Of a DNA stretch of 64,000 nucleotides, positions 1-60,852 are shown piece by piece. The notes under the pieces are model-generated. The model did no database searches. It was given only the letters and a program-made list of their open reading frames with translations, and was not told the DNA's origin. The stretch's first letter is position 1. The number at the start of each line of letters is the position of its first letter. Origin of the DNA: SAR202 cluster bacterium (GTDB lineage Bacteria > Chloroflexota > Dehalococcoidia > UBA6926 > VFHL01); the NCBI GenBank assembly GCA_009392005.1, contig VFHL01000001.1, positions 87,966 to 151,965 of the forward strand, read 5' to 3'. The position numbers were made by a program, and so were the translations under genes.

Positions 1-260
1 TGCTCGATGAACATTGGCATGAAAAAAAGAAAATGTCTTCGTCGATCTCTTCACCAGATATAGATCGCTGGTATACAGTTGCTAAAGATCATGGGGCAGT
101 TGGTGGTAAAGTAATGGGAGCCGGCGGTGGAGGATTCTTTATGCTATATGTTGAATCTCAAAATAAGAATCAATTGCGAAAAAGTTTAACCGATCTTGGG
201 TTACGTCCCATTCGTTTTGCAATTGATTATGGAGGTTCGAGGATCGTCGGTAATTTTTAA
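1..260 (+). CDS. GHMP-family sugar kinase, C-terminal fragment (gene start lies upstream of window); likely heptose-7-phosphate kinase (HddA-like)
   Basis: Frame is open back to nt 3. Glycine-rich GHMP C-terminal motif 'GKVMGAGGGGFFMLYV'. Directly upstream of a GmhA-like isomerase. Confidence 0.6.
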   Translation, partial: LDEHWHEKKKMSSSISSPDIDRWYTVAKDHGAVGGKVMGAGGGGFFMLYVESQNKNQLRKSLTDLGLRPIRFAIDYGGSRIVGNF

Positions 261-275
261 TAACAGAGGGATATT

Positions 276-899
276 ATGGCTATCAATTCTTTACACGAAA
301 CTTATTTTAAAAAGCTTGAGAAAATGACCCGTGATTTTATGGACAGCCAAGCGGATGATTTGGAAAAATCGGTTGATCTATTGGTCGATGCATGGGAAAA
401 CGGCAAGTGCATTTATTCTTTTGGTAATGGTGGGTCTGCATCAACCGCGAGCCATCTTGCTTGCGATCTTGCGAAATTCACGATTATCCCAGGCAAGCCG
501 CGTTTGAAGGCTTTATGTCTTAACGATAATCCCTCGCTTGTCAGTGCTTGGACAAACGATTCTGGATTCGGCACAATTTTTGCAGAGCAATTAGAACCTT
601 GGATCGATGAAGGAGATGTTCTTATACCGATTTCAGTGCATGGGGGCTCTGGATCAGGCGATGCTGGCCCGTGGTCACAAAACCTGGCTCAGGCAGTTAA
701 TCTGGGCAAGGAACGAGGCGCTAAAACTATAGGCTTGTCAGGGTTTGATGGGGGATTTTTGGGCGAACAGGCAGATATCTGCCTCGTTGCGCCAATGGAT
801 GAAGAACCCTGGGGGACGCCACTGATTGAATCTTTTCATGTTGCGTTGCATCACTTGCTTTGCCTAGCGGTGAAGGAAAGGATTCAACATTCTGCTTAG
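276..899 (+). CDS. gmhA: SIS-domain sedoheptulose-7-phosphate isomerase (GmhA-like)
   Basis: 'SFGNGGSAS...HLACDL' and 'GDVLIPISVHGGSG', 'GAKTIGLSGFDGG' align by eye to the GmhA phosphoheptose isomerase. ATG at 276 sits 9 nt after a 'gaggga' RBS. Confidence 0.7.
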   Translation: MAINSLHETYFKKLEKMTRDFMDSQADDLEKSVDLLVDAWENGKCIYSFGNGGSASTASHLACDLAKFTIIPGKPRLKALCLNDNPSLVSAWTNDSGFGTIFAEQLEPWIDEGDVLIPISVHGGSGSGDAGPWSQNLAQAVNLGKERGAKTIGLSGFDGGFLGEQADICLVAPMDEEPWGTPLIESFHVALHHLLCLAVKERIQHSA

Positions 900-1001
900 C
901 AGATCTTGTTTGTTGATTGGTGTGAACGAGATGATCATATGCTATGGATTTGATTTGCGGGCGCCGAGCATTGTTACTTCAACGAAAGCGGCGAGTTTCG
1001 C

Positions 1002-2003
1002 ATGAAGGTGGGTATTATTGGAGCGGGACGGCAGGGATGGCGCCGAGCTCAAGCCATTGATGTATCCCGCGATGACATCACATTTGTATCAGATATTGAT
1101 GCTCAGGCTGCAGAAAATCTTGCTGTAGTTTATCGGGCGAACCACACAGTCAATTGGCAGGATGTGGTGCGTGATTCAAACGTTGATTCTGTCATTGTTT
1201 GCACTCCTCCCCTTTTTCACGCGGAAATTGTGACCTCTGCTCTTGAAAATGGCAAGCATGTTTTGTGTGAAAAGCCTCTAGCAAGAAATTTGAAAGAAGC
1301 ACAAGATATTTTTCATGCATCTGTGTCAAATGCGGTCAAATTGAAATGTGGTTTTAACTATCGTCATTTCCCTGCCATTAAACAAGCCAAACAGTGGTGT
1401 GACCAAGGCGTAATCGGTGACCTTCTATTGATGCGTTGCAGGCACGGCATCGGTGGGCGTCAAGATTACGATAGTGAATGGCGTGTGCAGAGCAGCGTCA
1501 GCGGTGGCGGAGAATTAATCGATCAGGGATCTCATGTTGTTGATCTATTCAGGTGGTTTATGGGTGAGTTTTCTGAGGTGTTTGGCATTACCGAAACCTC
1601 ATATTGGGATATTGAACCTGTAGAAGATAACGCGTTTGGGTTGCTTCGACAGCCCAACAACCGCATTTCCTCGTTCCATGTGAGTTGGACGCAGTGGAAA
1701 AATCTTTTCTCTCTTGAAATCATTGGGTCGAAAGGATCTATTTCAGTAGATGGAATAGGTGGGAGTTACGGTTCGCAGGAAGTGGTTTTGGCTGGAAGAA
1801 ATGATGCTGATTCAGATATGAATAAGCGCATCGAATTTCGTGGTGTTAGCGAAACATGGATCGCTGAATGGCAAGAATTTAGTGACGCTATTAAAGACAA
1901 TCGCGAGCCGATGGCGAATGCGAAGGATGGACTCGAGGCGGTGCGTTTGATTGATGCGCTTTATAGATCAAGTGAACTTGGTCAACCGATCACAATAAAC
2001 TAG
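1002..2003 (+). CDS. Gfo/Idh/MocA-family NAD(P)-dependent oxidoreductase (paralog 1)
   Basis: N-terminal Rossmann 'MKVGIIGAGRQG', 'CEKPLA', 'KCGFNYRH', 'GIGGR' family motifs. Confidence 0.75.
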   Translation: MKVGIIGAGRQGWRRAQAIDVSRDDITFVSDIDAQAAENLAVVYRANHTVNWQDVVRDSNVDSVIVCTPPLFHAEIVTSALENGKHVLCEKPLARNLKEAQDIFHASVSNAVKLKCGFNYRHFPAIKQAKQWCDQGVIGDLLLMRCRHGIGGRQDYDSEWRVQSSVSGGGELIDQGSHVVDLFRWFMGEFSEVFGITETSYWDIEPVEDNAFGLLRQPNNRISSFHVSWTQWKNLFSLEIIGSKGSISVDGIGGSYGSQEVVLAGRNDADSDMNKRIEFRGVSETWIAEWQEFSDAIKDNREPMANAKDGLEAVRLIDALYRSSELGQPITIN

Positions 2004-2021
2004 GATTTTTGGAGGACTATA

Positions 2022-3038
2022 ATGTTAAAGGTTGCGATGATTGGGGCCAATTTGCAGGGAAGACGGAGAGGTCCTGTGATCCAAGAACTTCCGGAGTCCG
2101 AATTGGTTTTAGTGACAGCCGGGCATCTTGAAAGGGCGCAGGTGCTCGCTGACGAGCTTCAATGCGAAGCTTCCACTGGATGGGATGAAGCGGTTCAAAG
2201 GGATGATATAGACGCTGTAGTGATTTGTACGCCCACGCATCTTCACCTCCCTGCTGCGCTTGCTGCGATTGAAAATGGGAAACATGTTCTGTGTGAGAAA
2301 CCACTTGGACTTGATGTTGAAGAAGCCGAAAAAATCGAACAGGCCGCGCGAGCTGCAGGAGTGATATTGAAATGCGGATTCAATCATCGTCATCATCCAG
2401 GACTGCAGCAGGCTCATCAATGGATAAAAGACGGGGAAATCGGTGAGGTGATGTTCGCCCGATGTCGATATGGCATTGGTGGTCGTCCGGGATATGAAAA
2501 TGAATGGCGAGCTGATCCCAAAATAGTTGGTGGCGGGCATTTACTTGAGCATGGTATTCATGCAATCGATTTGTTTCGATGGTTTGTTGGTGATCCCTCA
2601 CAAGTTTTTGGCTACACAAACACCTCTTTTTGGGATATGGAACCCTTGGAAGATAATGCGTTTGCACTTTTGAGGACGCAAACTGGCGTTGTTTTCTCAC
2701 TTCATTCGAGCCTGACGCAATGGACGAATCTTTTTTCGTACGAAATTTATGGTCACGAGGGATATATTCAAGTTGAAGGTCTTGGAGGCAGTTATGGTGT
2801 TGAGAAAGCCTCTTTAGGAAAGCGAGACTTTACAGCACCGTTTTCGGACCAAACAATTCAGTATCGTGGTGCCGACCGTTCGTGGTACGAGGAATGGCGA
2901 GAATTTGTTGCTGCGGTTCAGGAGAATCGCGAGCCGCTTGCTAATGGAGTTGACGGAGTGGAAGCATTACGTGTTGTTCACGCGATTTATGAATCTGCGC
3001 AAGATGGTAAGGTTGTGTTACTTTCGCAAGATCAATAA
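2022..3038 (+). CDS. Gfo/Idh/MocA-family NAD(P)-dependent oxidoreductase (paralog 2, tandem)
   Basis: Same motif set ('CEKPLG', 'KCGFNHRH', 'GIGGRPGYENEWR', 'DLFRWF') as the upstream gene, roughly 50% identical by eye. 18-nt spacer with RBS 'ggagga'. Confidence 0.75.
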   Translation: MLKVAMIGANLQGRRRGPVIQELPESELVLVTAGHLERAQVLADELQCEASTGWDEAVQRDDIDAVVICTPTHLHLPAALAAIENGKHVLCEKPLGLDVEEAEKIEQAARAAGVILKCGFNHRHHPGLQQAHQWIKDGEIGEVMFARCRYGIGGRPGYENEWRADPKIVGGGHLLEHGIHAIDLFRWFVGDPSQVFGYTNTSFWDMEPLEDNAFALLRTQTGVVFSLHSSLTQWTNLFSYEIYGHEGYIQVEGLGGSYGVEKASLGKRDFTAPFSDQTIQYRGADRSWYEEWREFVAAVQENREPLANGVDGVEALRVVHAIYESAQDGKVVLLSQDQ

Positions 3039-3061
3039 CAAGCTATAGGGTTTAGGACATT

Positions 3062-4210
3062 ATGAAGATCGCTATCATTTCAGATACTTTGTATCCCTTC
3101 GTTAAGGGGGGGGCAGATAAGCGTTATCATGAAATTGCGAAGTATTTAGTTGCTCAGGGGCATGAGGTCCATGTATTTACCTTGCGGTGGTGGGGTGATG
3201 AGAAATCAATCCTTCGTGACGGGATGAGATTTCATGGAGTGTGTGATCCTATGCCTTTATACGTTAAAGGCCGGCGATCGATTCGTGAGGCAATAGTTTT
3301 CGCGATGGCTCTGCCATGGAGTTTAATGCGGCATCGTTTTGATGTGATTGAATGCAATGTGAATCCTTTCTTGCATTGTTTCCCCATCAGGGTTATTTCG
3401 TGGATTTACCGTACCAAATTGGTGTTCGGTTTGTGGGAATGTTGGGGCAATTATTGGTTTGACTATCTCGGTGCCAGAGGGATCATGGGATGGCTTATGG
3501 AGCGCCTAGCGATAATGCTGCCAAATAAGATCATTGTGGAAAGTCAGTCGAACAAAGATATACTAGTATCATGGGGTGTGAATCCTAAAAAGATTTCACG
3601 GATTCCGAGTGGGGTTCATTTCAGCATGATACAAGATGTTCCCAAAGCGGATGGCAAGTTGGATCTTATTGTTGTGGGTCGAATGATTCGAGCAAAGGGA
3701 GCACATACGTTTCTTAACGCGTTGCCAAAAGTGATTGAACAAAATTCTTCTTTACGCGTAGGGATTGTAGGAGACGGACCGGAGATGGAAAATTTGAGGC
3801 AGATTAGCTCAAGTTTAGGATTAGATTCATATATAGAGTTTTATGGTTTTGTTCCCGAAGAAAAAGATGTTATTGCATTAATGAAGACAGCTAAAATTTT
3901 TGTTTACCCCGCTGCGATGGAAGGCGGATGGGCACTGACCGCTATAGAAGCAAACGCGAGTGGCCTCCCGACGATTGGTGTTGAAAAGGGAGATCTCGGA
4001 ATAACTGAGGCGGTCATTGAAGGGTTTAATGGAGTGTTAATTCCTGAAGAAAATGAGGATCTTTTAGCAGAGAAGATTAATGAAGTTCTTAAGGACGATA
4101 ATGCAAGGTCTAATATGAGTGCAAATGCTGTTGATTTTGCTCGTCAACATGACTGGCATGATCTTGCAAACCAAATAGAAAATGTATACGAAGAAGTGTA
4201 TGGGCGTTGA
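3062..4210 (+). CDS. GT4-family (group 1) glycosyltransferase
   Basis: C-terminal EX7E-type motif 'EGGWALTAIEANASGLPTIG...EAVIEGFNGVLIP'. N-terminal 'MKIAIISDTLYPFVKGGADK' typical of GT4. Confidence 0.75.
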   Translation: MKIAIISDTLYPFVKGGADKRYHEIAKYLVAQGHEVHVFTLRWWGDEKSILRDGMRFHGVCDPMPLYVKGRRSIREAIVFAMALPWSLMRHRFDVIECNVNPFLHCFPIRVISWIYRTKLVFGLWECWGNYWFDYLGARGIMGWLMERLAIMLPNKIIVESQSNKDILVSWGVNPKKISRIPSGVHFSMIQDVPKADGKLDLIVVGRMIRAKGAHTFLNALPKVIEQNSSLRVGIVGDGPEMENLRQISSSLGLDSYIEFYGFVPEEKDVIALMKTAKIFVYPAAMEGGWALTAIEANASGLPTIGVEKGDLGITEAVIEGFNGVLIPEENEDLLAEKINEVLKDDNARSNMSANAVDFARQHDWHDLANQIENVYEEVYGR

Positions 4211-4278
4211 TGCAATATTTATTGAGGGAAAGAAAATGTGTTTTGTGAAACATTTTTTTTCATTCAGGTGAGGAGCGT

Positions 4279-4968
4279 TTGGTGCCAAGTGTTACAGTCG
4301 TAATCCCTGCTCTTAATGAAGAGTTAGCAATTGAAGATACGATCCAGAAGATCCCCCGAGAGGATCTTGAAAGTTCGGGGTTTCCTACCGAAGTCCTTGT
4401 TGTAGACAATGGATCAACGGATAAGACGGCAGAATACGCGACGGATGCTGGTGCACGTGTAATTGCACAACCGAATCGTGGTTATGGTTGGGCATTGTGG
4501 ACAGGTTTTGTGAATGCCGAAGGCGATATTATTGTCACAATTGATGCAGATATGACATATCCAGCAGACATGATTCCAGACTTGGTAAACACGCTTGTTG
4601 AAAAAGATCTTGATTTCTTGACCACAAATCGCTTTGCACAAATGGAATCTGGCGCCATGAATTGGAGAAATCAATTTGGCAATCGGGTTCTTTCGCTAGC
4701 TGCACGTGTTTTGTTCCAGATTCCGTTTGTTGATTCACAATCTGGGATGTGGGTGTTTCGACGAGCAATCTTGGAGAAAATCAAATTAAGGTCACGTGGT
4801 ATGCCTTTGTCAGAGGAGATTAAGATTGAGGCTGCTTACTTCGCGAAATTGCGTTGCATCGAAGTACCAATTCCATACGCACGTCGCCAAGGACCAGTGA
4901 AGCTCCGTGCTTGGCGGGATGGGATGGAGAATTTACTATATCTGTTTTACAAGCGCGTGCGGCGGTGA
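4279..4968 (+). CDS. GT2-family glycosyltransferase (DPM1/polyprenyl-phosphate sugar transferase-like)
   Basis: 'VVIPALNEE', 'VVDNGSTDKT', 'DADMTYP' GT2 motifs. GTG start with GAGGAG RBS 8 nt upstream. Confidence 0.7.
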   Translation: MVPSVTVVIPALNEELAIEDTIQKIPREDLESSGFPTEVLVVDNGSTDKTAEYATDAGARVIAQPNRGYGWALWTGFVNAEGDIIVTIDADMTYPADMIPDLVNTLVEKDLDFLTTNRFAQMESGAMNWRNQFGNRVLSLAARVLFQIPFVDSQSGMWVFRRAILEKIKLRSRGMPLSEEIKIEAAYFAKLRCIEVPIPYARRQGPVKLRAWRDGMENLLYLFYKRVRR

Positions 4969-4981
4969 TGTTGGTTATCTG

Positions 4982-5917
4982 ATGAGATGTCTTATTACAG
5001 GTGCAACTGGATTCTTTGGATCCCACTTGACGTTGGTCTTGGCGCAAACGACGGATTGGACGTTGTATGGTACGAGCCACAAGAATCCGCAACGTCTTAC
5101 GATTCCTCAAGAACATATTCAACTGACTCAGTGCGATTTTCGCGATCAAACAGCGGTTGATGCTCTTGTTCAAAACATTCAGCCTGATTTAATTTTTCAT
5201 CTTGCCGCACAAAGTTTACCTGCTGATTCGTGGCGGAATCCTCGAGATACCCTCGACGCAAATGTTTTGGGTTCAATTAACTTATATGAAGCAGCAAAAA
5301 AACAGGAGAATTCTCCTCGAGTGGTCTTTGTTGGATCGAGCGCGGAGTATGGCTCTGGAACAAAAGAAGGTGCGTTACTTGTAGAGGATTCTCCGCTGGA
5401 ACCAGTTAATCCGTACGGTGTTAGTAAACTAGCAGCGGATTTGATGGCACAAAATTATTATGCGGCAGGCTTGTTAGATATCATTCGGGTACGCCCATTT
5501 CTCATTATTGGTGTTGGTAAAACAGGAGACGCCTGTTCTGATTTTTCACGCGGAGTTGTTGCGATCGAACGTGAACAGAGTAGTGCTCTTCGAGTTGGGA
5601 ATCTTAGTTCGGTGCGTGATTTTGTAGCGGTACAAGATGCTTCGAGGGCATTAATATTGATTGCCAATCATGGGGAATCGGGCGAGGTTTATAATTTGTG
5701 CTCAGGTATAGGGCATTCTATGCAAGAAGTTCTTGATCTAATCGTTTCAAATGCCGAACGTGAAATCATTATCGAACAAGATGCGAAACGTTTGCGGCCA
5801 ACAGATGAGTTGCAACTGGTGGGCGACTCAACGAAGTTGCAATCTTTAGGTTGGAAACCTGAGGTATCTTTAGAGACCGCCTTAGTAGAAATATTGGAGT
5901 ATTGGCGGCGTAACTAA
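4982..5917 (+). CDS. NAD-dependent epimerase/dehydratase (extended SDR; GDP-4-keto-6-deoxy sugar reductase Rmd-like)
   Basis: 'MRCLITGATGFFGSHL' Rossmann motif starts at ATG 4982. The longer track ORF from 4907 overlaps the GT2 gene and is rejected as the N-terminus. Confidence 0.7.
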   Translation: MRCLITGATGFFGSHLTLVLAQTTDWTLYGTSHKNPQRLTIPQEHIQLTQCDFRDQTAVDALVQNIQPDLIFHLAAQSLPADSWRNPRDTLDANVLGSINLYEAAKKQENSPRVVFVGSSAEYGSGTKEGALLVEDSPLEPVNPYGVSKLAADLMAQNYYAAGLLDIIRVRPFLIIGVGKTGDACSDFSRGVVAIEREQSSALRVGNLSSVRDFVAVQDASRALILIANHGESGEVYNLCSGIGHSMQEVLDLIVSNAEREIIIEQDAKRLRPTDELQLVGDSTKLQSLGWKPEVSLETALVEILEYWRRN

Positions 5918-5988: not shown

Positions 5989-6510
5989 TTGAAAGACCGG
6001 CCAATTCTGTACTCTGAGAAACAGCGGTTTCGCCAATGGTGGATTTGGGTACTTATTCTTCCAACCCCGATGGTTTGCCTTTGGGGGATGTTTCAGCAGA
6101 TTATCTTGGGTGTTCCATTTGGGAATGCTCCGGCGAATGATTTGTTTTTGATATTAATCGCGGTTGTATTTGGTTTGGGGTTGCCTCTATTTATATATAA
6201 GGCCGGGCTCGATACTGAAGTGACGGATCGTGAAGTGAGGATTCGCTTCAGACCGATTCATAGGGATTGGGTGAGGTATGATTTTGATCAAATCGAAAAT
6301 GTCGAGGTTCATATTTATAACCCCATTCGGGACTATGGTGGATGGGGAATTCGTTATGGGAGATTGGGTAAGGCATACAATGTGAGTGGGAACGCAGGAG
6401 TTCTTGTAACATTGAAAAATGGGACTCGAGTTTTGATTGGCTCTGGATTACACGAAATTCTAAGCGGCATAATTTTTGATCAGATGCAACGGTGTTCAAA
6501 CAATACTTAG
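5989..6510 (+). CDS. membrane protein with two N-terminal TM helices and a bacterial PH-like (YdbS/DUF304-type) domain
   Basis: Two hydrophobic helices followed by a beta-rich 'VTDREVRIRFRP...GTRVLIGSG' segment. TTG start is uncertain; an alternative ATG lies downstream. Confidence 0.4.
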   Translation: MKDRPILYSEKQRFRQWWIWVLILPTPMVCLWGMFQQIILGVPFGNAPANDLFLILIAVVFGLGLPLFIYKAGLDTEVTDREVRIRFRPIHRDWVRYDFDQIENVEVHIYNPIRDYGGWGIRYGRLGKAYNVSGNAGVLVTLKNGTRVLIGSGLHEILSGIIFDQMQRCSNNT

Positions 6511-16181: not shown

Positions 16182-17714
16182 ATGGATTCACTCCTAATGA
16201 CTATCCTTCTCGTCACTATAGCGTCTGTTTTTACAGGGATCATTGGTTATTTGATCCGTCATACCGCGTTGGCACGTCAAATTCATCGATCCAAAGACGA
16301 TGCAGAACAGATTATTGTGGAAGCTCAGTCAGAGAGCCAAACAATATTGCTCGCAGGCAAGGAAGAATCCCTTAAATTGCGTAATACAGCGGAAACAGAG
16401 ATTCGAGATAGGTGGCGGGAGATTCAAAATCAGGAGCGACGCGTTTCTCGTAAGGAAGAACAGATTGATAACAGGGTAGATTCCTTGGAGAAGAGGGATC
16501 GCAAGATTGCTGAAAAAGAAAAAATGACTGAGAGAATTCAGGAAGAGACGCAACAGATTTTTGAAAATCAAATTGGTGAGTTGGAGCGTGTTGCAAGTAT
16601 GGAGTCAGAGGAAGCCCGAGATATTCTTCTAGAAAGAATGGATGAAGAAATTCGGGATGAGACGAATCGGCGAGTGCGACAGATGGAAAGCCAGATTCGC
16701 GAGGAGACGCAGGAACGTGCACGCGAGATATTGATTCCAGTTATCCAACGCTACGCTGGCGATGTCGTGGCTGAGATGACGACGACCGTTGTGCCTATAC
16801 CTAATGATGATATGAAAGGGCGGTTAATTGGCCGTGAAGGGCGCAATATTAGAGCATTGGAAAACGCAACTGGGGTTAATTTAATTGTTGATGATACTCC
16901 TGAGGCAGTCACTTTATCATCGTTTGATCCGATACGGCGTGAAGTAGCTCGTTTGGCTGTATCAAAACTTGTTCAAGACGGTCGTATCCAGCCTGCTCGT
17001 ATTGAAGAGGAAGTTGAAAAAGCTGAGAAACAAGTTGATGAAACTGTTCGGAAAGCTGGCGAGGACGCCGCTTATGAGGCAGGCGTGAACGGCCTGAAAC
17101 CCGAAATTCTCAAGACAATGGGTCGCTTAAGGTTTCGTTACAGTTACGGGCAAAATGTTTTGAAGCATAGCATTGAAGTAGCAATTCTCGCAGCGGCTAT
17201 AGCAGCAGATTTGAGGGCGAATGTAGATGTCGCGCGGCGCTCAGGGTTCTTGCATGACATTGGGAAGGCGCTTACACATGAGATTGAAGGACCACATGCA
17301 ATGATTGGTGCCGATCTTTTGAAGCGATTAAGTGTTTCCCAACGAATTGTTCATGCTGTTGCTGACCATCATGGTGAAGCGGGTAACAATAGCCAAGATG
17401 GCTTTATTGTAGCGGCTGCAGATGCTATAAGTGGCGCTCGCCCGGGAGCCCGGCGTGATACTGCAGAAGCGTATACCAAAAGGCTCGAGAATTTGGAAGA
17501 AATCGCGAATGAGTTTGAGGGCGTTGATAAATGCTACGCGATTCAAGCGGGGCGCGAAATGCGCATCATGGTACGGCCAGAGCACATTGATGATGTTGGA
17601 GCGATGCGGATGGCGCGAGACGTAGCAAAGAGAGTAGAAGAAACACTTGATTATCCTGGCCAGATTCGGATAACTGTTATTAGAGAGACTCGATCTACGG
17701 AGTATGCTAAATAA
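16182..17714 (+). CDS. rny: ribonuclease Y
   Basis: N-terminal TM helix, long charged coiled coil, KH domain ('GREGRNIRALENATGVNLIVDD'), HD domain ('LHDIGKAL...HH'). Confidence 0.9.
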   Translation: MDSLLMTILLVTIASVFTGIIGYLIRHTALARQIHRSKDDAEQIIVEAQSESQTILLAGKEESLKLRNTAETEIRDRWREIQNQERRVSRKEEQIDNRVDSLEKRDRKIAEKEKMTERIQEETQQIFENQIGELERVASMESEEARDILLERMDEEIRDETNRRVRQMESQIREETQERAREILIPVIQRYAGDVVAEMTTTVVPIPNDDMKGRLIGREGRNIRALENATGVNLIVDDTPEAVTLSSFDPIRREVARLAVSKLVQDGRIQPARIEEEVEKAEKQVDETVRKAGEDAAYEAGVNGLKPEILKTMGRLRFRYSYGQNVLKHSIEVAILAAAIAADLRANVDVARRSGFLHDIGKALTHEIEGPHAMIGADLLKRLSVSQRIVHAVADHHGEAGNNSQDGFIVAAADAISGARPGARRDTAEAYTKRLENLEEIANEFEGVDKCYAIQAGREMRIMVRPEHIDDVGAMRMARDVAKRVEETLDYPGQIRITVIRETRSTEYAK

Positions 17715-17729
17715 ACTTCGTTACGATAT

Positions 17730-17769
17730 AGCAGGATGGTGGCACAGTGTTTTTGGTTACCATCCTGCT
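17730..17769 (+). terminator. stem-loop 16 nt downstream of rny (11-bp perfect stem, 18-nt loop)
   Basis: 'agcaggatggt...accatcctgct'. No clear U-tract, so it may be a terminator or an RNA-stability element. Confidence 0.35.
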
Positions 17770-17867
17770 AAGAATTATGACATCTCCCTTGATGAAATAA
17801 TTCTTGGTCGTATTTTTGAAAGGCCAGTTGTTCTCCTATCAATTCGGTATGATTCGGAGGGTCGATT

Positions 17868-18743
17868 ATGAGTTCAGATCTTCATCTGCATACTAAATTT
17901 TCTGATGGATTGTTGAGTCCGACAGAGCTTGTTGAACAAGCTGTTAATGTTGGGTTAGCCATAATTTCGATCACGGATCATGATTCTACTGATGGGATCA
18001 TCGAAGCATTAACGGCTACTGATTTGTATCCCCAAATAACATTGATTCCCGGTGTTGAATTAAGTACAGATTTTGAGGGTGGTGAAATTCACATTTTGGG
18101 TTATTTCAATGAGATTCCGGAAGGGATCTTTCAAGATAAGATGGCTGAATTTCGTCAATCGCGTGTCGGAAGGGCGCGCGATATGATTGGTAAGTTGGCT
18201 GGTTTAGGCATGGAACTCGATTGGCAGCGTGTTCAAGAGTTGGCGGCGGATGGATCAATTGGTCGTCCGCATGTTGCTCTTGCATTACAGGAACAAGGAT
18301 ATGTTGAGACTGTATCTGAAGCTTTTGATAAATATATCGGCATTACAGGACCGGCGTATGTTGATCGGCAGAAACTTGCCCCTGATGAAGCTATTACCTT
18401 AATAAAAAATGCGGGTGGAGTCGCGGTTCTTGCCCATCCTTTAAACAAGGAAATTGATTTAAGGAATATTGATACCGGTCATTTGGCCAAATTGGTTACT
18501 GACTTGGCTCAAGCGGGACTAACGGGAATTGAGACGTATTATGGATCCTATACCCCTGCCGCTCGGAAACATCTTGCGGGTTTAGCAGAGGAGAATCAGT
18601 TACTTTCGCTTGGTGGCAGCGATTTTCATGGACCTGGGATTGGAGCGGATGTGCCTTTAGGTGCTTCCGATACCTCGGTGGAATGTGGTAAAGATTTGTT
18701 AAGGGCTCTGGACGAATTATGGAATATGTTTGAAGATGAATAA
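17868..18743 (+). CDS. PHP-domain metal-dependent phosphoesterase (TrpH/YciV-like)
   Basis: 'DLHLHTKFSDGLLSP', 'ISITDHDS' PHP motifs. Confidence 0.75.
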   Translation: MSSDLHLHTKFSDGLLSPTELVEQAVNVGLAIISITDHDSTDGIIEALTATDLYPQITLIPGVELSTDFEGGEIHILGYFNEIPEGIFQDKMAEFRQSRVGRARDMIGKLAGLGMELDWQRVQELAADGSIGRPHVALALQEQGYVETVSEAFDKYIGITGPAYVDRQKLAPDEAITLIKNAGGVAVLAHPLNKEIDLRNIDTGHLAKLVTDLAQAGLTGIETYYGSYTPAARKHLAGLAEENQLLSLGGSDFHGPGIGADVPLGASDTSVECGKDLLRALDELWNMFEDE

Positions 18744-18793
18744 CTAGATGGGCTCAATATCAGAACGGAAACTAAGTCGTTTCAGGCTTACCG

Positions 18794-19303
18794 ATGGGAT
18801 CTAACGGGCAAGATATTTCAGTACAAATGTGCGCGCGTCATTCGGCCGTAGAAACGCGTCTTTCATGTGGCCGATGTGGAACTCCGATTTGTACAGATTG
18901 TATGGTATATGCGTCAGTTGGGTTGCGCTGTCGTGATTGCGTGGGGCAGGCTAAGCCTCCTATTTACGATATTGGTATAACCCATTTGTTTATTGCGATT
19001 GCATTGGGTGTAGTTTTTTCTCTAATCGCCGCTTCATTATGGATATTACTTCCGGGTTTTTTAAGCCGCTTTGGATTAGGTTTTTATGGCTTGATCGTGA
19101 TGATTAGCGTTGGGCATTTTACTGCGCATTTCATGTCACGTGCTTTAAAAGGCAAACGGGGTCGAGAACTGCAATTTGTTGCGGGTCTCACTGTAATTTT
19201 TGGGTATATGATCGCTCTTCCATTTATGCCTTCTTTGTTCAATTCATATGCGGTTTTTTCTCTCCTTTTTGCCGTATTGGTGGCTGTTGCAAGGCTCAGA
19301 TGA
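18794..19303 (+). CDS. membrane protein with N-terminal zinc-ribbon (two CxxC pairs) and about 4 TM helices; unknown function
   Basis: 'CGRCGTPICTDC...CRDC', then hydrophobic helices. Confidence 0.45.
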   Translation: MGSNGQDISVQMCARHSAVETRLSCGRCGTPICTDCMVYASVGLRCRDCVGQAKPPIYDIGITHLFIAIALGVVFSLIAASLWILLPGFLSRFGLGFYGLIVMISVGHFTAHFMSRALKGKRGRELQFVAGLTVIFGYMIALPFMPSLFNSYAVFSLLFAVLVAVARLR

Positions 19304-19323
19304 ACTTATAGCTGAAATAGATC

Positions 19324-20418
19324 TTAGTAATCAATTATAGTGCGTATCACTTGAACCGCCTTCATATCATCGAAGGCCTCATTGATTTCTGCTAATGGCC
19401 TGCGGCGAGAGACCATTTCATCTAAAAGAATCTTGCCGCTCATATACAGGTCAACCAGTTTAGGGATGTCTGCGTGGACGCTGGCAGATCCGTAAAATGA
19501 GCCGATCAATTTTTTTTCTCGTAAGAAGTCATTGCCTGGTATTGAGATGTTTTCTCTGTTGACTCCCACAGCCACTGCTGTGCCACCTTTTCTAATCATG
19601 GCAAAGGCTTGTTCTACTGTTTTAGAAAGCCCAATTGCTTCGAATGCATAATCTAAGCGATCACTTGTTATATCACGCACTGACTCGACCGCATCAACTT
19701 TTGTTGCGTTGATGATCTTTGTAGCTCCAAATTTTGGCGCGATCTGCAACTTTTCTTCTACAAGGTCGATGGCTATTATCTCGCTCGCACCAGCGAGCTT
19801 GGCACCTTGGACAATACCCAATCCCACTCCGCCTAATCCGATGACAGCAACACTAGAGCCTGGTTCTACTTTAGCGGTATTAATAGCCGCACCAATTCCT
19901 GTAGTTACCCCACATCCGAGCAAACATACTATATTTAGCGGTGCATCTTCACGTATTTTTATGACACCATATTCTGGCATTATTGTGTACTCTGCGAATC
20001 CTCCGACTCCGACCCCTTGCATGACTGGCGTACCGTTTGTCATTGTTCTACGGGGGCGAGGTCCGCTGCCACTACGATCAGGGTAATCTCTTTGGTCACA
20101 AAGATTTTCCATCCCTCGGACGCAGTAATAGCAACGACCACAACTTGGAGCAAACGCTATGATTACATGGTCACCAGGTTGCACGTTAGTCACATTCTCT
20201 CCGATGGATTCAATAGTCCCTGCCGCTTCGTGCCCGAGTACAATCGGTGTGTCTAAAGGCTCTGTTGCACGTTGAATAACACCTAAATCCGAATGGCATA
20301 CACCACAGGAATGTATTTTTACTAAGACCTCTCCCGCTTCAATTGCATCAAGATGTACATTTTCAATTACAAGCGGCCCTGGACCGTTCAGAATTGCTGC
20401 TTTCATTCGTTTCTCCAT
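19324..20418 (-). CDS. zinc-dependent alcohol dehydrogenase (MDR family)
   Basis: 'GVCHSDL', 'GHEAAGTIESIG', structural-Zn Cys cluster 'CGRCYYCVRGMENLC', 'GLGGVGLG' Rossmann motif. Confidence 0.85.
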   Translation of the reverse strand: MEKRMKAAILNGPGPLVIENVHLDAIEAGEVLVKIHSCGVCHSDLGVIQRATEPLDTPIVLGHEAAGTIESIGENVTNVQPGDHVIIAFAPSCGRCYYCVRGMENLCDQRDYPDRSGSGPRPRRTMTNGTPVMQGVGVGGFAEYTIMPEYGVIKIREDAPLNIVCLLGCGVTTGIGAAINTAKVEPGSSVAVIGLGGVGLGIVQGAKLAGASEIIAIDLVEEKLQIAPKFGATKIINATKVDAVESVRDITSDRLDYAFEAIGLSKTVEQAFAMIRKGGTAVAVGVNRENISIPGNDFLREKKLIGSFYGSASVHADIPKLVDLYMSGKILLDEMVSRRRPLAEINEAFDDMKAVQVIRTIIDY

Positions 20419-20463
20419 TCTATTTGAAGTAGATGACTTTTTTTTATTCGAATATAGGATTAT

Positions 20464-21219
20464 TTAGTTTTTATTGATCGCAGATATCTCAACCTTTGCG
20501 CTCACCAAAGCGTGGTTGATCTTGGACGCTAATTTTGTTGCATTGGGAGTATCACTGTGGACGCACAGCGTATCCATTTCTAGTTTGATTTCTTCGCCGG
20601 TTATACTTGTAACCTTTTTTTCCGTTATCATTTTAACGCTTCTCTTTACAACTGTATCGATGTCGTGAATCACGGCACCTGGTGTCCCTCGCGGTACTAA
20701 TGAGCCATTAGCAGCGAAAGCTCTATCTGCAAACACTTCCTGCGCGACTTGTAGGTTCATGTTTTCGGCTATATTGACCCATTTCGTTCCAGCCAGAACA
20801 ATTAATATCATCTCTTTATCGAACTTGAGGACAGCGTTACAAATTGCTTCAGCTAAATTTTCGTCATTAGCTGCCATGTTGTACATGGATCCGTGCGGCT
20901 TGACGTGTGCGAGCCTTTTGGTTTTTGTGAATGCTGCAAGAGCGCCAATTTGGTAGGTAACATCATCTTCAACCTCTTTTGGTGAAACATCCATATTTCG
21001 GCGGCCAAAGCCTTTTAAATCCGGAAAGCTGGGGTGTGCCCCGATACTGACACCGTGTTTTTCTGCCAAGGTGACGGTTTTACGCATCCAGCCGGGATCC
21101 CCTGCATGAAAACCACATGCTATATTTGCTGAGCTGATGTATTTGATCATTTCTTTATCGTTCCCAAGTTCGTATGTGGCGAAGCTTTCACCCATATCGC
21201 AGTTGATGTCTATCTTCAT
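20464..21219 (-). CDS. pxpA: 5-oxoprolinase subunit A (LamB/YcsF family)
   Basis: 'MKIDINCDMGESFATYELGNDKEMIKYISSANIACGFHAGDP' is a canonical PxpA N-terminus. Confidence 0.85.
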   Translation of the reverse strand: MKIDINCDMGESFATYELGNDKEMIKYISSANIACGFHAGDPGWMRKTVTLAEKHGVSIGAHPSFPDLKGFGRRNMDVSPKEVEDDVTYQIGALAAFTKTKRLAHVKPHGSMYNMAANDENLAEAICNAVLKFDKEMILIVLAGTKWVNIAENMNLQVAQEVFADRAFAANGSLVPRGTPGAVIHDIDTVVKRSVKMITEKKVTSITGEEIKLEMDTLCVHSDTPNATKLASKINHALVSAKVEISAINKN

Positions 21220-43394: not shown

Positions 43395-44021
43395 ATGGCG
43401 CCGTCGCTTGAGAGACCAAGTTTTGATCTTGAAGATCAATTGCAACAAGATGGACAATATCCCTTGATTGCAGGAACAGATGAAGTTGGGCGTGGTTCAA
43501 TAGCGGGACCGGTAGCAGCAGCAGCAGTCGTGTTCCCTGCACGGTTTGAATCCGACTGGATACAAGCAGTTGATGATTCAAAAAGATTGACTGCGAGTCA
43601 GCGTGAAAAGCTTGCCCACCTGATCTTGGAAGAATGTTTTGTAGGTCTAAGTTTTGTTTCTCCTCGCACAATAGACTCTATTGGTATCGTTCCTGCTACC
43701 CAACTGGCCATGCGCCGATCTGTCGCCGGTCTCCTTTTCACACCAGATTTTCTACTTGTTGATGGTATGGATTTGCCTGAGGCACCTTGCCCTTCTCGCC
43801 CTGTGATTCATGGCGATAGATTGTCTATTTCAATCGCAGCGGCGTCAATTGTTGCTAAGGTAACCCGTGATCGTTATATGTTGGAGATGGATGTCGTTCA
43901 CCAAGGGTATGCTTTTCGGACCAACAAAGGATACCTAACATCGCAACATCGGGCGGCATTAGATCAACTGGGTCCGACTCCTATCCATCGGTTCAGTTTT
44001 GCACCTGTCCGCAGCAGTTGA
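43395..44021 (+). CDS. rnhB: ribonuclease HII
   Basis: 'IAGTDEVGRGSIAGPVAAAAVVFP' is the canonical RNase HII active-site N-terminus. ATG 43395 preferred over the TTG at 43374. Confidence 0.85.
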   Translation: MAPSLERPSFDLEDQLQQDGQYPLIAGTDEVGRGSIAGPVAAAAVVFPARFESDWIQAVDDSKRLTASQREKLAHLILEECFVGLSFVSPRTIDSIGIVPATQLAMRRSVAGLLFTPDFLLVDGMDLPEAPCPSRPVIHGDRLSISIAAASIVAKVTRDRYMLEMDVVHQGYAFRTNKGYLTSQHRAALDQLGPTPIHRFSFAPVRSS

Positions 44022-44082
44022 TTACAACAATATCCGTTTGAATATTTTTCCGGATGAACGAGTGGCATATAATGTGAGACAT

Positions 44083-45435
44083 ATGAGTGATAACGTGTTT
44101 CGCAATTTGCCAAGCGTGGATCGGGTATTGTCCCACGCATTAGTCGCAGAACTTTCGGTCTCGCGAGAAGTGAAAGTATCTTTGTGTCGTGAGGCGATTA
44201 CTTTTGCACGCGATGTTGCGAGAGAGGGAACGGAGCTATCTCTCGAGGATATAGTGACGCGGGTTAGAGAAAAAGCTGACATGCTAATGCATGTTGGTCT
44301 GGTACGCGTGATTAACGCGACGGGTGTCATTTTGCATACGAACTTAGGTCGCTCTCCTCTCAGCAAAGATGCGTTATCTGCTGTACAGCAGAGTTCTGTA
44401 GGGTATACCGATTTGGAGATGAATTTAGAAGATGGTAAGCGAGGATCACGTTATAGTCACGTTGAAAATTTACTCAAGCAAATCACTGGGGCTGAAGCTG
44501 CAATAGTGGTAAATAACAATGCGTCTGCACTACTACTTGCGCTGGCGTCAGTCGCGCAAAACAAAGAAGTGATTGTGTCAAGAGGGGAATCCGTTGAAAT
44601 TGGGGGGAGATTTAGGATTCCTGATGTTATGCGCGCGAGTGGAGCCTTGTTGAAAGAGATTGGAACGACTAATCGCACCTATGTATCCGACTATGAGGAG
44701 GCGATTAGTGATAATACAGCCGCTTTCCTCAAGGTGCATGCAAGTAATTTTACCCAGGCAGGATTCACGAGTTCAGTGAAGGTTGAAGAATTACTCCCTC
44801 TTGCGAACTCACGTGGTGTGTTCCTCATGAATGATATTGGTTCGGGATGTCTGGTTGATACGGCAAAATATGGCTTGGTTTCAGAACCAACCGTTCAAGA
44901 AAGTGTAGGAGCAGGTGTTTCTTTGACGCTCTTTTCAGGAGACAAGCTGCTTGGTGGTCCCCAAGCCGGTATTGCTGTGGGGACTAAAAAGACGATTGAT
45001 CAGCTGAAAAGCAATCCAATTTCTCGTGCAGTGAGGATTGATAAAATGGATCTTGCTGCATTGGTTGCCACTTTGCGGCATTATTTGGAGGATGAATTTG
45101 AAGAAAAAATACCTGTTTGGCAAATGGTTTCAGCTAGTACGGATGAGCTAAGATTGCGTGCGGAAAAATGGTTGGAATCTGTGCCGAAAGCAGAAATTGT
45201 TGCAGGTGAATCAACTATTGGTGGTGGCAGCCTTCCTGGACAAACGCTGCCAACATATACATTAGCCATTGCAGAATCAAATGCTCAAGGAGGGCTTGAT
45301 CACATTGCGAGTCGGATGAGGCAAGCTAGTCCTCCCGTTATTGGACGTATCGATGATGGGCGATTTCTTCTTGACCCTCGATCCGTCCTTCCGGAAGAGG
45401 ACAATGATGTTGTTCAAGCTTTAGCCCGAGTGTAG
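44083..45435 (+). CDS. selA: L-seryl-tRNA(Sec) selenium transferase (selenocysteine synthase)
   Basis: N-terminal 'FRNLPSVDRVL' and the PLP-lysine motif 'FSGDKLLGGPQAG' are typical of SelA. Start set at 'MSDNVF' (ATG 44083). Confidence 0.8.
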   Translation: MSDNVFRNLPSVDRVLSHALVAELSVSREVKVSLCREAITFARDVAREGTELSLEDIVTRVREKADMLMHVGLVRVINATGVILHTNLGRSPLSKDALSAVQQSSVGYTDLEMNLEDGKRGSRYSHVENLLKQITGAEAAIVVNNNASALLLALASVAQNKEVIVSRGESVEIGGRFRIPDVMRASGALLKEIGTTNRTYVSDYEEAISDNTAAFLKVHASNFTQAGFTSSVKVEELLPLANSRGVFLMNDIGSGCLVDTAKYGLVSEPTVQESVGAGVSLTLFSGDKLLGGPQAGIAVGTKKTIDQLKSNPISRAVRIDKMDLAALVATLRHYLEDEFEEKIPVWQMVSASTDELRLRAEKWLESVPKAEIVAGESTIGGGSLPGQTLPTYTLAIAESNAQGGLDHIASRMRQASPPVIGRIDDGRFLLDPRSVLPEEDNDVVQALARV

Positions 45436-58644: not shown

Positions 58645-59619
58645 ATGGGTCCCGAAGAAGCGAAGCAACTAGCAGATAACATAATCGACAATGTATCAAC
58701 TGTCATAATAGGCAAGCGTCACGTTGTTCAGCACGCTCTCATATCGGCCGTGTGTGGTGGGCATATTCTGATTGATGATGTTCCTGGTGTTGGCAAGACG
58801 GTTCTTGCTAAAAGCCTTTCAATATCTTTTGGATGTTCATTTAAACGTGTGCAATTTACACCTGATTTGTTGCCGAGTGATGTATTAGGCGTCTCTATTT
58901 ATGACCAGGAGAGTCGTGACTTTACTTTTCGGCCTGGTCCAGTAATGTCCCAAGTATTGCTCGCAGATGAAGTGAATCGCGGGACCCCTAAAACACAGTC
59001 AGCGTTGTTGGAAGCGATGGAAGAAAATCAGATTACAGTAGATGGTGTTACTCATTTTCTTCCCAAGCCCTTTATAGTACTTGCGACGCAGAACCCTCTG
59101 GAACATGAAGGTACTTTTCCACTTCCTGAAGCTCAGCGAGATCGCTTCTTCATGCGTGTGCATTTGGGGTATCCCACGAAAGACGAAGAAAAAGAGATCA
59201 TGGAACAGCAACAAGAGGTGCATCCAATTGAAAGTTTGCAACCATTAACCACGCCTGACCAATTAATTTCTTTGCAGCAGACGGTCCGTGGCATATATGT
59301 TGATGATTTGGTGAAACAATATATTGTGGATATTGTTGACGCTACTCGCAAATTGGATGATGTTTATGTGGGTGTGTCACCGCGGGGTTCATTGGCGTTG
59401 TTTCGAGGTTCACAGGCACGCGCATTGCTGGATGGACGTGATTATGTGTCCCCTGATGATGTAAAAGGATTGGTGCAGCCAGTTTTGCAGCATCGGATTA
59501 TCTTGTCGTCGGCGACACGATTGCAAGATACTACTGCAGAATCTGTTCTTGGTCATGTTCTGGACTCGATTCCGGTACCTGGCACGTCTAGTCGTGGGTG
59601 GTTTCGAGCTGAATCGTGA
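58645..59619 (+). CDS. MoxR-family AAA+ ATPase
   Basis: 'VPGVGKT' Walker A, 'LLADEVNR' Walker B, 'VLATQNPLE...GTFPLPEAQRDRF' MoxR signature. Confidence 0.85.
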   Translation: MGPEEAKQLADNIIDNVSTVIIGKRHVVQHALISAVCGGHILIDDVPGVGKTVLAKSLSISFGCSFKRVQFTPDLLPSDVLGVSIYDQESRDFTFRPGPVMSQVLLADEVNRGTPKTQSALLEAMEENQITVDGVTHFLPKPFIVLATQNPLEHEGTFPLPEAQRDRFFMRVHLGYPTKDEEKEIMEQQQEVHPIESLQPLTTPDQLISLQQTVRGIYVDDLVKQYIVDIVDATRKLDDVYVGVSPRGSLALFRGSQARALLDGRDYVSPDDVKGLVQPVLQHRIILSSATRLQDTTAESVLGHVLDSIPVPGTSSRGWFRAES

Positions 59620-60827
59620 AAACAAAACGTTTTGTGTTTGGTGTCTTGCTCTTCGCGATGTTTTTGACAATTGGTTCAGGATTCTACGCGACCGCACGTC
59701 TTGCGGGCATTTTAATTGCAGTATTAGCCCTGTCATTTTTGTGGGCTCGTGTTAACGTTCGCTGGCTTGATATTCGAATTGAACGTACATTAAACGATGT
59801 TCAGGTAAATGATGATATCGAAGAAAAGGTGATCGTTCGCAACCTCAGCCTTTTACCTCTTCCTTGGTTATTTGTTGATGATCTTGGCAACCTTCCTAGG
59901 CACGGCCTAAGCAGGGTTTTTGGTATCGGTGGGTGGTCTTCATTGTCTTGGAATTCCACCACACGAGTTTCGCAGCGGGGTGTATTCACTCTTGGGCCTG
60001 TAGAAGTTATGACTAGCGACCCTTTGGGGTTATTTCAGGCTACTAGGATCTATGGGGATGCCCAAGAGATTCTCGTATATCCAGAGACTTTATTTTTAGC
60101 GGGATTTCAAATTCCAACCGAAGGACACGTCGGAGATTCTTCAGATCTTCGCTCGACCCGCGGATTAACCTCAAATGTACGGTCAGTTCGCAAATATGAA
60201 ATAGGGGACGGGTTGAACAGTGTTCATTGGAAAAGCACGGCTCGGTACAATCAACTGATGGTTAAAGAATTTGAGATAGAACGCCATGGAGGGGTTTGGA
60301 TTATTCTTGACATGAATCGAAACACTCAGGAAGGTGAGGGAGCAGAAAGTACAGAAGAATATGGAATTAAGGTAGCGGCTTCAGTAGCACATACGTTGTT
60401 GGAGCAGGGACAAGATGTAGGATTAGCATTGACAGGAGATACGCAACATTTTCTACATCCATCCAATTCTTCAAGTCATCGATTAGAGGTGCTTGAGACG
60501 TTGGCTCGTGTAAGGGCTGACGGACAAATGTCGGTGCAAGAAGTTTTTTTTCATATCGAGAGATTCCTTGGTCCATCGTCTGCAGTTGTCGTCATTAGTC
60601 CATCAGGGGAAGATCTACAAATAACCGCATCTAATCTGATTGGCCGTAATATTCCAGGATCTCTCGTTATATTAGATTCGGAGAGCTTTTCTGGTCGCGT
60701 AAGTGGGTCGGATTTTGCAAATAATATATTAGCTGCCGGGATGTTTGCCTACCATATTCGTTGCGGTGATGACCTACAATCGACATTGCGATTGAATACT
60801 AGTTTGATTGCCACTGGAAGAAGATGA
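59616..60827 (+). CDS. DUF58-domain protein (VWA-like, MoxR partner)
   Basis: Overlaps the moxR stop by 4 nt. N-terminal TM helices, 'DYREYQPGD'-like region 'VRKYEIGDGLNSVHWKSTAR'. Confidence 0.7.
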   Translation: MKTKRFVFGVLLFAMFLTIGSGFYATARLAGILIAVLALSFLWARVNVRWLDIRIERTLNDVQVNDDIEEKVIVRNLSLLPLPWLFVDDLGNLPRHGLSRVFGIGGWSSLSWNSTTRVSQRGVFTLGPVEVMTSDPLGLFQATRIYGDAQEILVYPETLFLAGFQIPTEGHVGDSSDLRSTRGLTSNVRSVRKYEIGDGLNSVHWKSTARYNQLMVKEFEIERHGGVWIILDMNRNTQEGEGAESTEEYGIKVAASVAHTLLEQGQDVGLALTGDTQHFLHPSNSSSHRLEVLETLARVRADGQMSVQEVFFHIERFLGPSSAVVVISPSGEDLQITASNLIGRNIPGSLVILDSESFSGRVSGSDFANNILAAGMFAYHIRCGDDLQSTLRLNTSLIATGRR

Positions 60828-60852
60828 GCGTTATGTCTAAGCGAATTGATGC

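Follow-up and report, generated by a model that had tools for sequence, protein, structure and literature searches.

What sugar is made by the gene cassette that opens the 64,000-nucleotide (nt) stretch of SAR202 cluster bacterium DNA analyzed here (contig VFHL01000001.1, positions 87,966 to 151,965 of the forward strand, assembly GCA_009392005.1; in the following, the window), and where would this sugar be used? The cassette fits completely neither the classical guanosine diphosphate (GDP)-manno-heptose operon nor the lincosamide pathway and would best be filed as an envelope-glycan cassette with lincosamide-type tailoring enzymes. It appears rather probable that the product of the locus is a C7 or C8 sugar activated with GDP, which would undergo redox tailoring of the lincosamide type, would be reduced and not aminated, and would be built into an envelope glycan. 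Seven plus-strand genes were confirmed in window positions 1-5917 by open reading frame (ORF) listing, translation, and Pfam and NCBIfam scans:

1..260 (ORF 3-260), plus strand: 3' end, 85 codons, of a GHMP-family sugar anomeric kinase (HddA/LmbP-like); Pfam GHMP_kinases_C, best NCBIfam model HddA (E 5e-13)
276..899, plus strand: LmbN-type SIS ketose-phosphate/aldose-phosphate isomerase (GmhA superfamily), 207 amino acids (aa); Pfam SIS_2
1002..2003, plus strand: Gfo1, a complete Gfo/Idh/MocA oxidoreductase of type A; three Gfo/Idh/MocA Pfam domains
2022..3038, plus strand: Gfo2, a complete Gfo/Idh/MocA oxidoreductase of type B (LmbZ/CcbZ-like); Pfam and comparison with LmbZ/CcbZ
3062..4210, plus strand: GT4 (GT-B) glycosyltransferase; Glyco_transf_4 and Glycos_transf_1
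4282..4968, plus strand: small soluble GT2 of the polyprenyl-phosphate glycosyltransferase type (DPM1/ArnC/AglJ-like), 228 aa; Glycos_transf_2
4982..5917, plus strand: Rmd-like extended short-chain dehydrogenase/reductase (SDR), predicted GDP-keto-sugar reductase, 311 aa; best solved relative Rmd 2pk3

The intergenic gaps across the cassette are 13-102 nt, and a preliminary description of the same DNA, in which seven co-directional, tightly spaced genes had been noticed, was right in all its family assignments. The GT2 gene starts at ATG 4282 in public gene calls, with TTG 4279 as an alternative. For the SDR, a 336-aa ORF would begin at GTG 4907; this is probably not the true start and the Met at 4982 is favored, because the ORF overlaps the GT2 gene and Rmd (2pk3) aligns with the 311-aa form from its first residue onward. 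A scan for consensus promoters and terminators returned counts at chance level, so that operon boundaries are drawn from gene spacing only. At window 891-903, where the isomerase gene ends and the 102-nt gap before Gfo1 begins, a weak 5-bp hairpin is followed by a T-run, which may be an attenuator or a terminator.

Window positions 1-5917 make up the 3' half of a glycan locus that spans about 16 kb. L001, one of the sequences fetched for comparison (all of them designated by L numbers), matches the window exactly over the first 300 nt of the latter and adds 10 kb on the upstream side (window position = L001 position - 9725). Four genes found there belong to the argument:

L001 8999-9985, plus strand, running into window 1-260: full GHMP kinase, 328 aa
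directly upstream of the kinase, stop and start codons of the two overlapping: NTP_transferase protein, a nucleotidyltransferase of the HddC/LmbO type, 232 aa
L001 6990-7937, minus strand, divergent from the nucleotidyltransferase and kinase genes: SDR315, a GalE-like/LmbM-type epimerase, 315 aa
L001 5651-6976, minus strand, divergent: UDPG_MGDP_dh-family protein, similar to UDP-glucose dehydrogenase (UGDH) and of the LmbL type, 441 aa

The 232-aa protein corresponds to the HddC-type nucleotidyltransferase that, according to the preliminary description, might lie upstream.

The three activation enzymes belong to families of heptose pathways, albeit at a distance. The NCBIfam equivalog cut-offs are 209 bits for gmhA (TIGR00441), 600 bits for HddA and 300 bits for HddC; the isomerase reaches 87 bits with the gmhA model, the full-length kinase 184 bits with HddA, its best NCBIfam model, and the nucleotidyltransferase 103 bits with HddC, tied with MurU. 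The best solved relatives are GmhAs (1tk9 and others; E 4e-17, about 30% identity, 65 bits) for the isomerase, the heptose kinases B. thetaiotaomicron 3k85, 4n3o and WcbL 4usk (E 3e-48) for the kinase, and Yersinia HddC 5xhw (E 3e-20, 76 bits) for the nucleotidyltransferase; with heptose-pathway enzymes in this place, kinase and isomerase are not to be regarded as galactokinase or GlmS-type SIS proteins, in line with the first assignment. The isomerase domain of LmbN, a protein of the lincosamide pathway (roles of Lmb proteins according to PMC4351081 and PMC12945683), is 50% identical to the window isomerase (E 1e-63, 189 bits). In alignments A3/A4, with Campylobacter jejuni 1tk9, L009 and L022 as canonical GmhA sequences, common features of the window isomerase, of LmbN and of the Chloroflexi orthologues are Asp where GmhA has its catalytic Glu (HLACDL / HFAADL versus HFAAEL), AWTND versus AIxNDYG of canonical GmhA, an insert of 9-12 residues after SVHGG (9 aa in the window isomerase) that canonical GmhA does not have, and a 4-residue insert, EPxxTPLIES. 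The insert after SVHGG presumably falls in the substrate phosphate-binding loop of GmhA structures. Because of the 50% identity and the indels and residue changes shared with LmbN and lacking in canonical GmhA, the window isomerase is assigned to the LmbN subtype rather than to canonical GmhA.

The tailoring enzymes carry the comparison further. Gfo2 shares 43% identity with LmbZ over 324 aa (E 4e-90, 261 bits) and 48% with CcbZ over 278 aa, its best solved relative reaching only 113 bits. Gfo1 is 44% identical to Gfo2, 37% to LmbZ, only about 25-30% to solved relatives, and 50-54% to Chloroflexi homologues, which as a rule have an adh_short gene in front of them. Two signatures can be distinguished: type A, with an Asp at the end of strand beta-2, DQGxH and SWTQW, is found in Gfo1, L007_a, L008 and L009; type B, without the beta-2 Asp and with ExGIH and SLTQW, is found in Gfo2, L007_b and P0063 and is the same in LmbZ/CcbZ. 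Since the two types occur separately in other genomes, the tandem is read as a pair of old subtypes; the tandem dehydrogenases of the preliminary description thus stand as two adjacent complete genes, albeit not as a local duplication. The missing beta-2 Asp in type B suggests a different cofactor preference. The dinucleotide-binding motif of Gfo2 is GANLQG and not GxGxxG, with Asn for the second Gly; its nearest relatives have GAGLQG/GAKLQG and LmbZ/CcbZ have GTGLQA.

Of the two divergent upstream genes, SDR315 encodes a protein 47% identical to LmbM (295 bits), while the UGDH-like protein is 32% identical to LmbL. The latter carries GGTLARD and GLWHLG at positions where solved UGDHs have GGSCFPKD and GxGYVG, and the pattern GGTL(A/R/H/S)RD plus G(L/I)WHLG is common to this protein, LmbL, the homologue in L018, and the orthologues in L007, L008 and L178. 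By alignment, the catalytic Cys is absent from the upstream protein, as it is from LmbL, and a true UDP-glucose 6-dehydrogenase is unlikely. Assignment as an ordinary UDP-glucose dehydrogenase (TIGR03026, 351 bits) was dropped on account of the missing Cys and of the Rossmann motif, which is altered as in LmbL. The genes of this Cys-less subfamily, which includes LmbL (L177 12827-14140) and Chloroflexi proteins, are translationally coupled to a type B Gfo gene in L007 and L178.

The best solved relative of the window SDR is Rmd of A. thermoaerophilus (2pk3; E 1e-64, full-length alignment), followed by P. aeruginosa Rmd 6x3b (E 1e-41) and then by the C. jejuni GDP-heptose 4,6-dehydratase 7us5. 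The catalytic Ser and YxxxK are kept, and the motif is SSAEYG versus SSEEYG in Rmd, with Ala for Glu; we take the position of this Ala to be that of the catalytic Glu of GDP-mannose dehydratase (GMD). The comparison favors a reductase acting on a GDP-linked substrate. A 4,6-dehydratase partner of the GMD/DmhA type is not the best match of any of the three SDRs in the extended locus. Orthologues of the Rmd-like SDR, 42-48% identical, are encoded in L009, L022, L171/L007, L172 and L178. As for the glycosyltransferases, GT2 has AglJ (136 bits) and dolichyl-phosphate hexose transferase as its best NCBIfam models, all below the cut-offs, and P. furiosus Dol-P-Man synthase 5mlz and ArnC as its best solved relatives; it carries a DAD motif (TIDADM) and its 228 aa include no membrane helices. 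GT2 homologues of about 230 aa adjoin Gfo genes in L007, L008 and L175. GT2 is probably a polyprenyl-phosphate glycosyltransferase, while GT4 has generic NCBIfam matches only, all far below the cut-offs.

The linkage of these genes is conserved well beyond SAR202. A profile search of GTDB genomes with the Gfo alignment returned family members in only about 8 of the 80 loci listed, the others being mostly distant Gfo proteins with the generic motif HVLCEKPL; it supplied L012-L014, L018 and L022, and the locus proteins were compared with all fetched loci by tblastn. Among the matches listed, the Gfo family adjoins genes for kinase, isomerase, nucleotidyltransferase and phosphatase in the Chloroflexi loci L009, L010 and L022 and likewise in Elusimicrobia (L012), Acidobacteriota (L013), Chromatiales (L014) and Streptomyces (L018). 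In L018 the order is transaldolase, aminotransferase, nucleotidyltransferase, kinase, Gfo, SIS, epimerase, UGDH-like protein, HAD phosphatase, which is the order of the published lincomycin operon, lmbVTQRSOPZNML (PMC12945683). A homologue search with the L018 Gfo protein led to LmbZ of S. lincolnensis and CcbZ of S. caelestis, and via LmbZ the real lmb cluster, L177, was reached, on which the comparisons with Lmb proteins are based. Homologues of the isomerase, 62-68% identical, number thousands in metagenomes. A conserved operon of nucleotidyltransferase, GHMP kinase, SIS, GmhB-like HAD and TAL_FSA transaldolase genes is found in L171, L172, L173, L175 and L176, while L174 ends within the HAD gene; the SAR202 locus is the exception in that Gfo1 and Gfo2 follow the isomerase where these relatives have HAD and transaldolase. 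In L178, genes for kinase, SIS, HAD, transaldolase, nucleotidyltransferase, LmbM-, LmbL- and LmbZ-like proteins, Rmd-like SDR and GT2 all point in one direction. L171 and L007 lie on one contig, L007 comprising the blocks GT2, adh_short, type A Gfo and LmbM-like, LmbL-like, type B Gfo, together with an Rmd-like SDR gene; L007 had been considered a Gfo locus devoid of heptose genes, which was dropped on finding the activation operon about 12 kb away on the same contig.

Further features of these relatives may be recorded. In Dehalococcoidia, a GmhB-type phosphatase is fused to a transaldolase in a 431-aa protein (L009 7817-9112, L022 7803-9095), and in L009, from a Dehalococcoidia metagenome-assembled genome (MAG), an AglB/STT3-type oligosaccharyltransferase is encoded next to the sugar locus and two bAvd/23S_rRNA_IVP-family genes lie among rml genes (16273-21008). 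DegT-type aminotransferases are present in L173 (14731-16371, fused to an SDR domain) and L176 (13173-14444), and relatives that have DegT may make aminated forms of this higher sugar. The operon in L178 is broken by an ORF for a LAGLIDADG endonuclease and by split genes (3764-5455), which probably result from long-read frameshifts and a mobile insertion; P0063, from the same contig, has an internal duplication of about 55 aa.

From these elements the following pathway is proposed. The LmbN-type isomerase would convert a ketose phosphate, either sedoheptulose 7-phosphate or octulose 8-phosphate, into the aldose phosphate, and the GHMP kinase would, by homology, phosphorylate the anomeric position to give a bisphosphate. 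The terminal phosphate would then be removed by a phosphatase of the GmhB/LmbK type encoded elsewhere, which is a gap in the model. The HddC/LmbO-type nucleotidyltransferase would make the nucleoside diphosphate sugar, with GDP, probably alpha-linked, as the presumed nucleotide because of the relatedness to HddC, LmbO and Rmd. Tailoring would be accomplished by the LmbM-like epimerase, the LmbL-type UGDH-like protein and the LmbZ-like Gfo2, and eventually the Rmd-like SDR, Gfo1, or both would reduce the keto intermediate to an epimerized and/or deoxy sugar; reduction rather than amination is proposed because the locus is devoid of an aminotransferase gene, which also makes the aminated sugar of the preliminary description unlikely here. 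Finally, GT2 would load a sugar on polyprenyl phosphate, and GT4 would add a sugar to the growing envelope glycan. In the lincosamide pathway, the corresponding conversion of GDP-octose to GDP-lincosamine is brought about by LmbM, LmbL, CcbZ and CcbS (PMC12945683).

Several points weigh against a lincosamide-type higher sugar. Experimental data for the Lmb-type protein families come from Streptomyces proteins only, and an identity of 43-50% to Lmb proteins fixes neither substrate nor regiochemistry. The kinase (31.5% identity to LmbP) and the nucleotidyltransferase (29% identity to LmbO, 107 bits) are judged no closer to the lincosamide proteins than to the heptose enzymes, and the link of SDR315 to LmbM is not specific, as A. 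fulgidus GalE-1 (3ehe) scores nearly equally with 285 bits. SDR315 and the UGDH-like gene lie on the opposite strand and could pair instead with the upstream genes for a GT2, a methyltransferase and SDR331. By tblastn, no GmhB-type HAD phosphatase was detected in the 64-kb window or in the 10 kb upstream on L001, where the preliminary description had supposed one might lie (queries: the GmhB-like HAD of L171 and the LmbK-like HAD of L018 at E<=10; the GmhB::TAL fusion of L009 at E<=1e-8), nor was a TAL_FSA transaldolase homologue in the window or L001, so the pathway as encoded here is incomplete. In the related SIS loci a HAD gene lies directly 3' of SIS in 6/6 cases and a transaldolase gene is present in 5/5 complete ones; the SAR202 locus has neither. 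The transaldolase of these relatives is of the fsa/talC type (169 bits) and is 26% identical to the Streptomyces LmbR-like protein; it would thus fit either the synthesis of octulose 8-phosphate or the supply of sedoheptulose 7-phosphate.

The alternative that survives best, although we hold it to be rather unlikely, is that the product is a heptose, as put forward in the preliminary description, and that the resemblance to Lmb proteins reflects common ancestry only. A heptose would be favored by the activation enzymes, all three of which have heptose enzymes as their best solved relatives and gmhA, HddA and HddC as their best NCBIfam models, by sedoheptulose 7-phosphate being a universal metabolite while no dedicated transaldolase is encoded in the locus, and by the Rmd-like reductase, a type of enzyme that 6-deoxy-heptose pathways employ. 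An octose would be favored by the Lmb-type isomerase together with the three tailoring enzymes, and by the C8 side chain that a 6,8-dehydration needs; the lincosamine steps, as worked out by Wang et al. in 2020, are reportedly 6-epimerization, 6,8-dehydration, 4-epimerization and 6-transamination. The heptose is further opposed by all three scores being far below the equivalog cut-offs, by the much greater closeness of the isomerase to LmbN (189 versus 65 bits), its catalytic Glu position and its loop being altered as in LmbN, and by the locus having no GMD/DmhA-type 4,6-dehydratase, an SDR with Ala for the Glu of Rmd, and no GmhB. Of the earlier GDP-heptose reading, the family assignments of the activation enzymes and of the Rmd-like SDR are retained, while the sub-threshold scores and the genes of the LmbN, LmbZ, LmbM and LmbL types speak against the rest.

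That the locus consists of separate modules, with the Gfo pair, SDR, GT4 and GT2 acting on ordinary UDP- or GDP-hexoses (e.g., in 3-keto sugar or rhamnose-type chemistry) and the kinase, isomerase and nucleotidyltransferase being independent of them, we regard as improbable. The 102-nt gap with its weak hairpin between SIS and Gfo1 would agree with it, as would L008, L015 and L016, where Gfo family genes have no heptose-type genes within 10 kb, and L172, L173 and L176, where the activation module has no Gfo gene. However, the association of Gfo with the activation module recurs in at least five phyla, L007 seemed unlinked only through the 10-kb limit of the flanks, and a gene for a LmbZ-type Gfo lies inside the activation operon in L178 as well as in the lmb cluster.

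Very unlikely, in our opinion, is a scheme like that of DprE1/DprE2, in which GT2 would load a sugar on polyprenyl phosphate and the Gfo enzymes, joined by adh_short in relatives, would then epimerize the lipid-linked sugar by oxidation and reduction. It draws on the block of adh_short, type A Gfo and GT2 (about 230 aa) in L007 and L008, on the GT2-adh_short pair in L175, and on the resemblance of GT2 to Dol-P-Man synthase and ArnC. The SAR202 locus contains no adh_short gene, and we know of no Gfo/Idh/MocA enzyme acting on lipid-linked sugars. LmbZ/CcbZ act on a GDP-sugar (PMC12945683). A lincosamide-like secondary-metabolite cluster in place of an envelope-glycan locus can be practically dismissed, six Lmb homologues in the extended locus notwithstanding, as L001 and the window locus contain no condensation, adenylation, mycothiol or ergothioneine genes and no LmbS or LmbT/LmbV, as the locus includes GT4 and GT2, as flippases (Polysacc_synt), DUF4012 and AglB/STT3 occur in relatives, and as members of the family are spread very widely through Chloroflexi metagenomes.

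By exact-sequence look-up, the locus proteins are MQG20442-MQG20447 of 'SAR202 cluster bacterium' (a Chloroflexota MAG), under generic names only, and 22 public marine contigs carry the identical isomerase protein, with the same cassette genes called there. Bacterial RecA, RNase Y, RecJ, SelA and FabF are encoded in the window. Together with the deposition under SAR202, they rule out an archaeal source, which the AglJ-like GT2 and the DUF8044/DUF7982 neighbors had seemed to suggest. SelA (L-seryl-tRNA(Sec) selenium transferase; window 43999-45435, Pfam E 3e-139) indicates that the host probably uses selenocysteine; Rfam and tRNA scans of the window returned nothing. At the far end of the window (58645-63138, plus strand), a 761-aa transglutaminase-core protein is preceded by two ORFs. 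The neighbors flanking the locus itself are:

5989..6510, plus strand: last co-directional gene, DUF6141 membrane protein; weak Pfam DUF6141 match, two predicted hydrophobic helices
6548-8230, minus strand: convergent gene just 3' of the cassette, DUF4129 membrane/secreted protein, 560 aa
beyond the UGDH-like gene on L001: methyltransferase, GT2, 89-aa ORF, and SDR331 (UXS/GME-type SDR)
L001 1-2005, about 7.7-9.7 kb before window position 1, minus strand: phosphoenolpyruvate (PEP) mutase-nucleotidyltransferase fusion, 578 aa, adjoining a thiamine pyrophosphate (TPP) enzyme; TIGR02320 323 bits, above the cut-off

Whether the DUF6141 gene is part of the cassette is uncertain; in the tblastn comparison it was found in SAR202 contigs only and in 0 of the related loci. 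The TPP enzyme beside the PEP mutase fusion is probably a phosphonopyruvate decarboxylase, and the presence of both next to the glycan locus places a phosphonate pathway adjacent to it and suggests a phosphonate-decorated glycan. At least 455 relatives of the PEP mutase fusion were found in a profile search of marine metagenomes.

SAR202 counts among the ocean's most abundant bacterial clades; among the papers searched, none links SAR202 or Chloroflexi to heptose, octose or Lmb homologues. A relation to the lincosamine pathway that extends over several genes and is wide in Chloroflexi is unexpected and directly testable. If the likeness to the Lmb proteins reflects shared chemistry, it would be the first hint of the origin of the lincosamine pathway and would point to higher-carbon deoxy sugars of environmental bacteria as a large family still to be explored, and it would provide many natural variants of two poorly understood enzymes, the Cys-less UGDH-like protein and its Gfo/Idh/MocA partner; if the sugar is an ordinary heptose, the locus would be a routine cluster of polysaccharide genes, apart from its unusual tailoring enzymes. 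More speculatively, and with little confidence on our part, many Chloroflexota including marine SAR202 might decorate their envelope with a lincosamine-related octose (e.g., an 8-deoxy-octose, with amino-octoses in carriers of DegT) by means of LmbR/N/P/K/O/M/L/Z-type enzymes of primary metabolism, from which the sugar pathway of lincomycin in Streptomyces would be a recruited offshoot.

Comparing the locus with known systems, it shares with the classical GDP-manno-heptose pathway the families of the activation enzymes and the reaction logic, with 1tk9, 3k85/4usk and 5xhw as solved relatives, and differs from it by the three sub-threshold scores, the isomerase of LmbN subtype, and GmhB not being in the locus. 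It is unlike the lipopolysaccharide (LPS) ADP-heptose operon, as had been stated from the outset: the kinase is of the GHMP type and not HldE, the nucleotidyltransferase is a small protein of the HddC/RmlA type, the glycosyltransferases are GT4 and GT2 and not GT9, the locus showed no hldE, waaC or waaF, and the organism belongs to SAR202 within the Chloroflexota. An Rmd-type 4-ketoreductase is common to the locus and the pathways of GDP-D-rhamnose and GDP-6-deoxy-heptose, both pathways differing by the 4,6-dehydratase partner that is missing here, where the keto substrate would come from Gfo or LmbL-type enzymes. GT2 has the catalytic domain with DAD motif of Dol-P-Man synthase, ArnC, AglJ and PpgS, from which it differs in its length of 228 aa, the lack of membrane helices, and scores below the family cut-offs. 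Septacidin SepI was considered as a Gfo/Idh/MocA heptose 4-oxidase and ruled out, being a GMC/FAD oxidase (PMC9978623). The lincosamide amino-octose pathway of S. lincolnensis and S. caelestis differs in that the SAR202 locus is devoid of transaldolase, phosphatase, aminotransferase, condensation and thiol-transfer genes (genes of the DegT (LmbS) type and of the LmbT, V, C, D or E types were found neither in L001 nor in the window locus), adds type A Gfo, Rmd-like reductase, GT4 and GT2, and is found in a Chloroflexota host in an envelope-glycan context. Proteins of the LmbN, LmbZ/CcbZ, LmbM and LmbL types, together with about 30% identity to LmbP/LmbO, are shared with it, to which transaldolase and HAD phosphatase are added in the relatives L178 and L171. 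Judged from the encoded proteins, the nearest characterized pathway is thus that of GDP-octose and lincosamine, and not the heptose pathways of Aneurinibacillus or Campylobacter.

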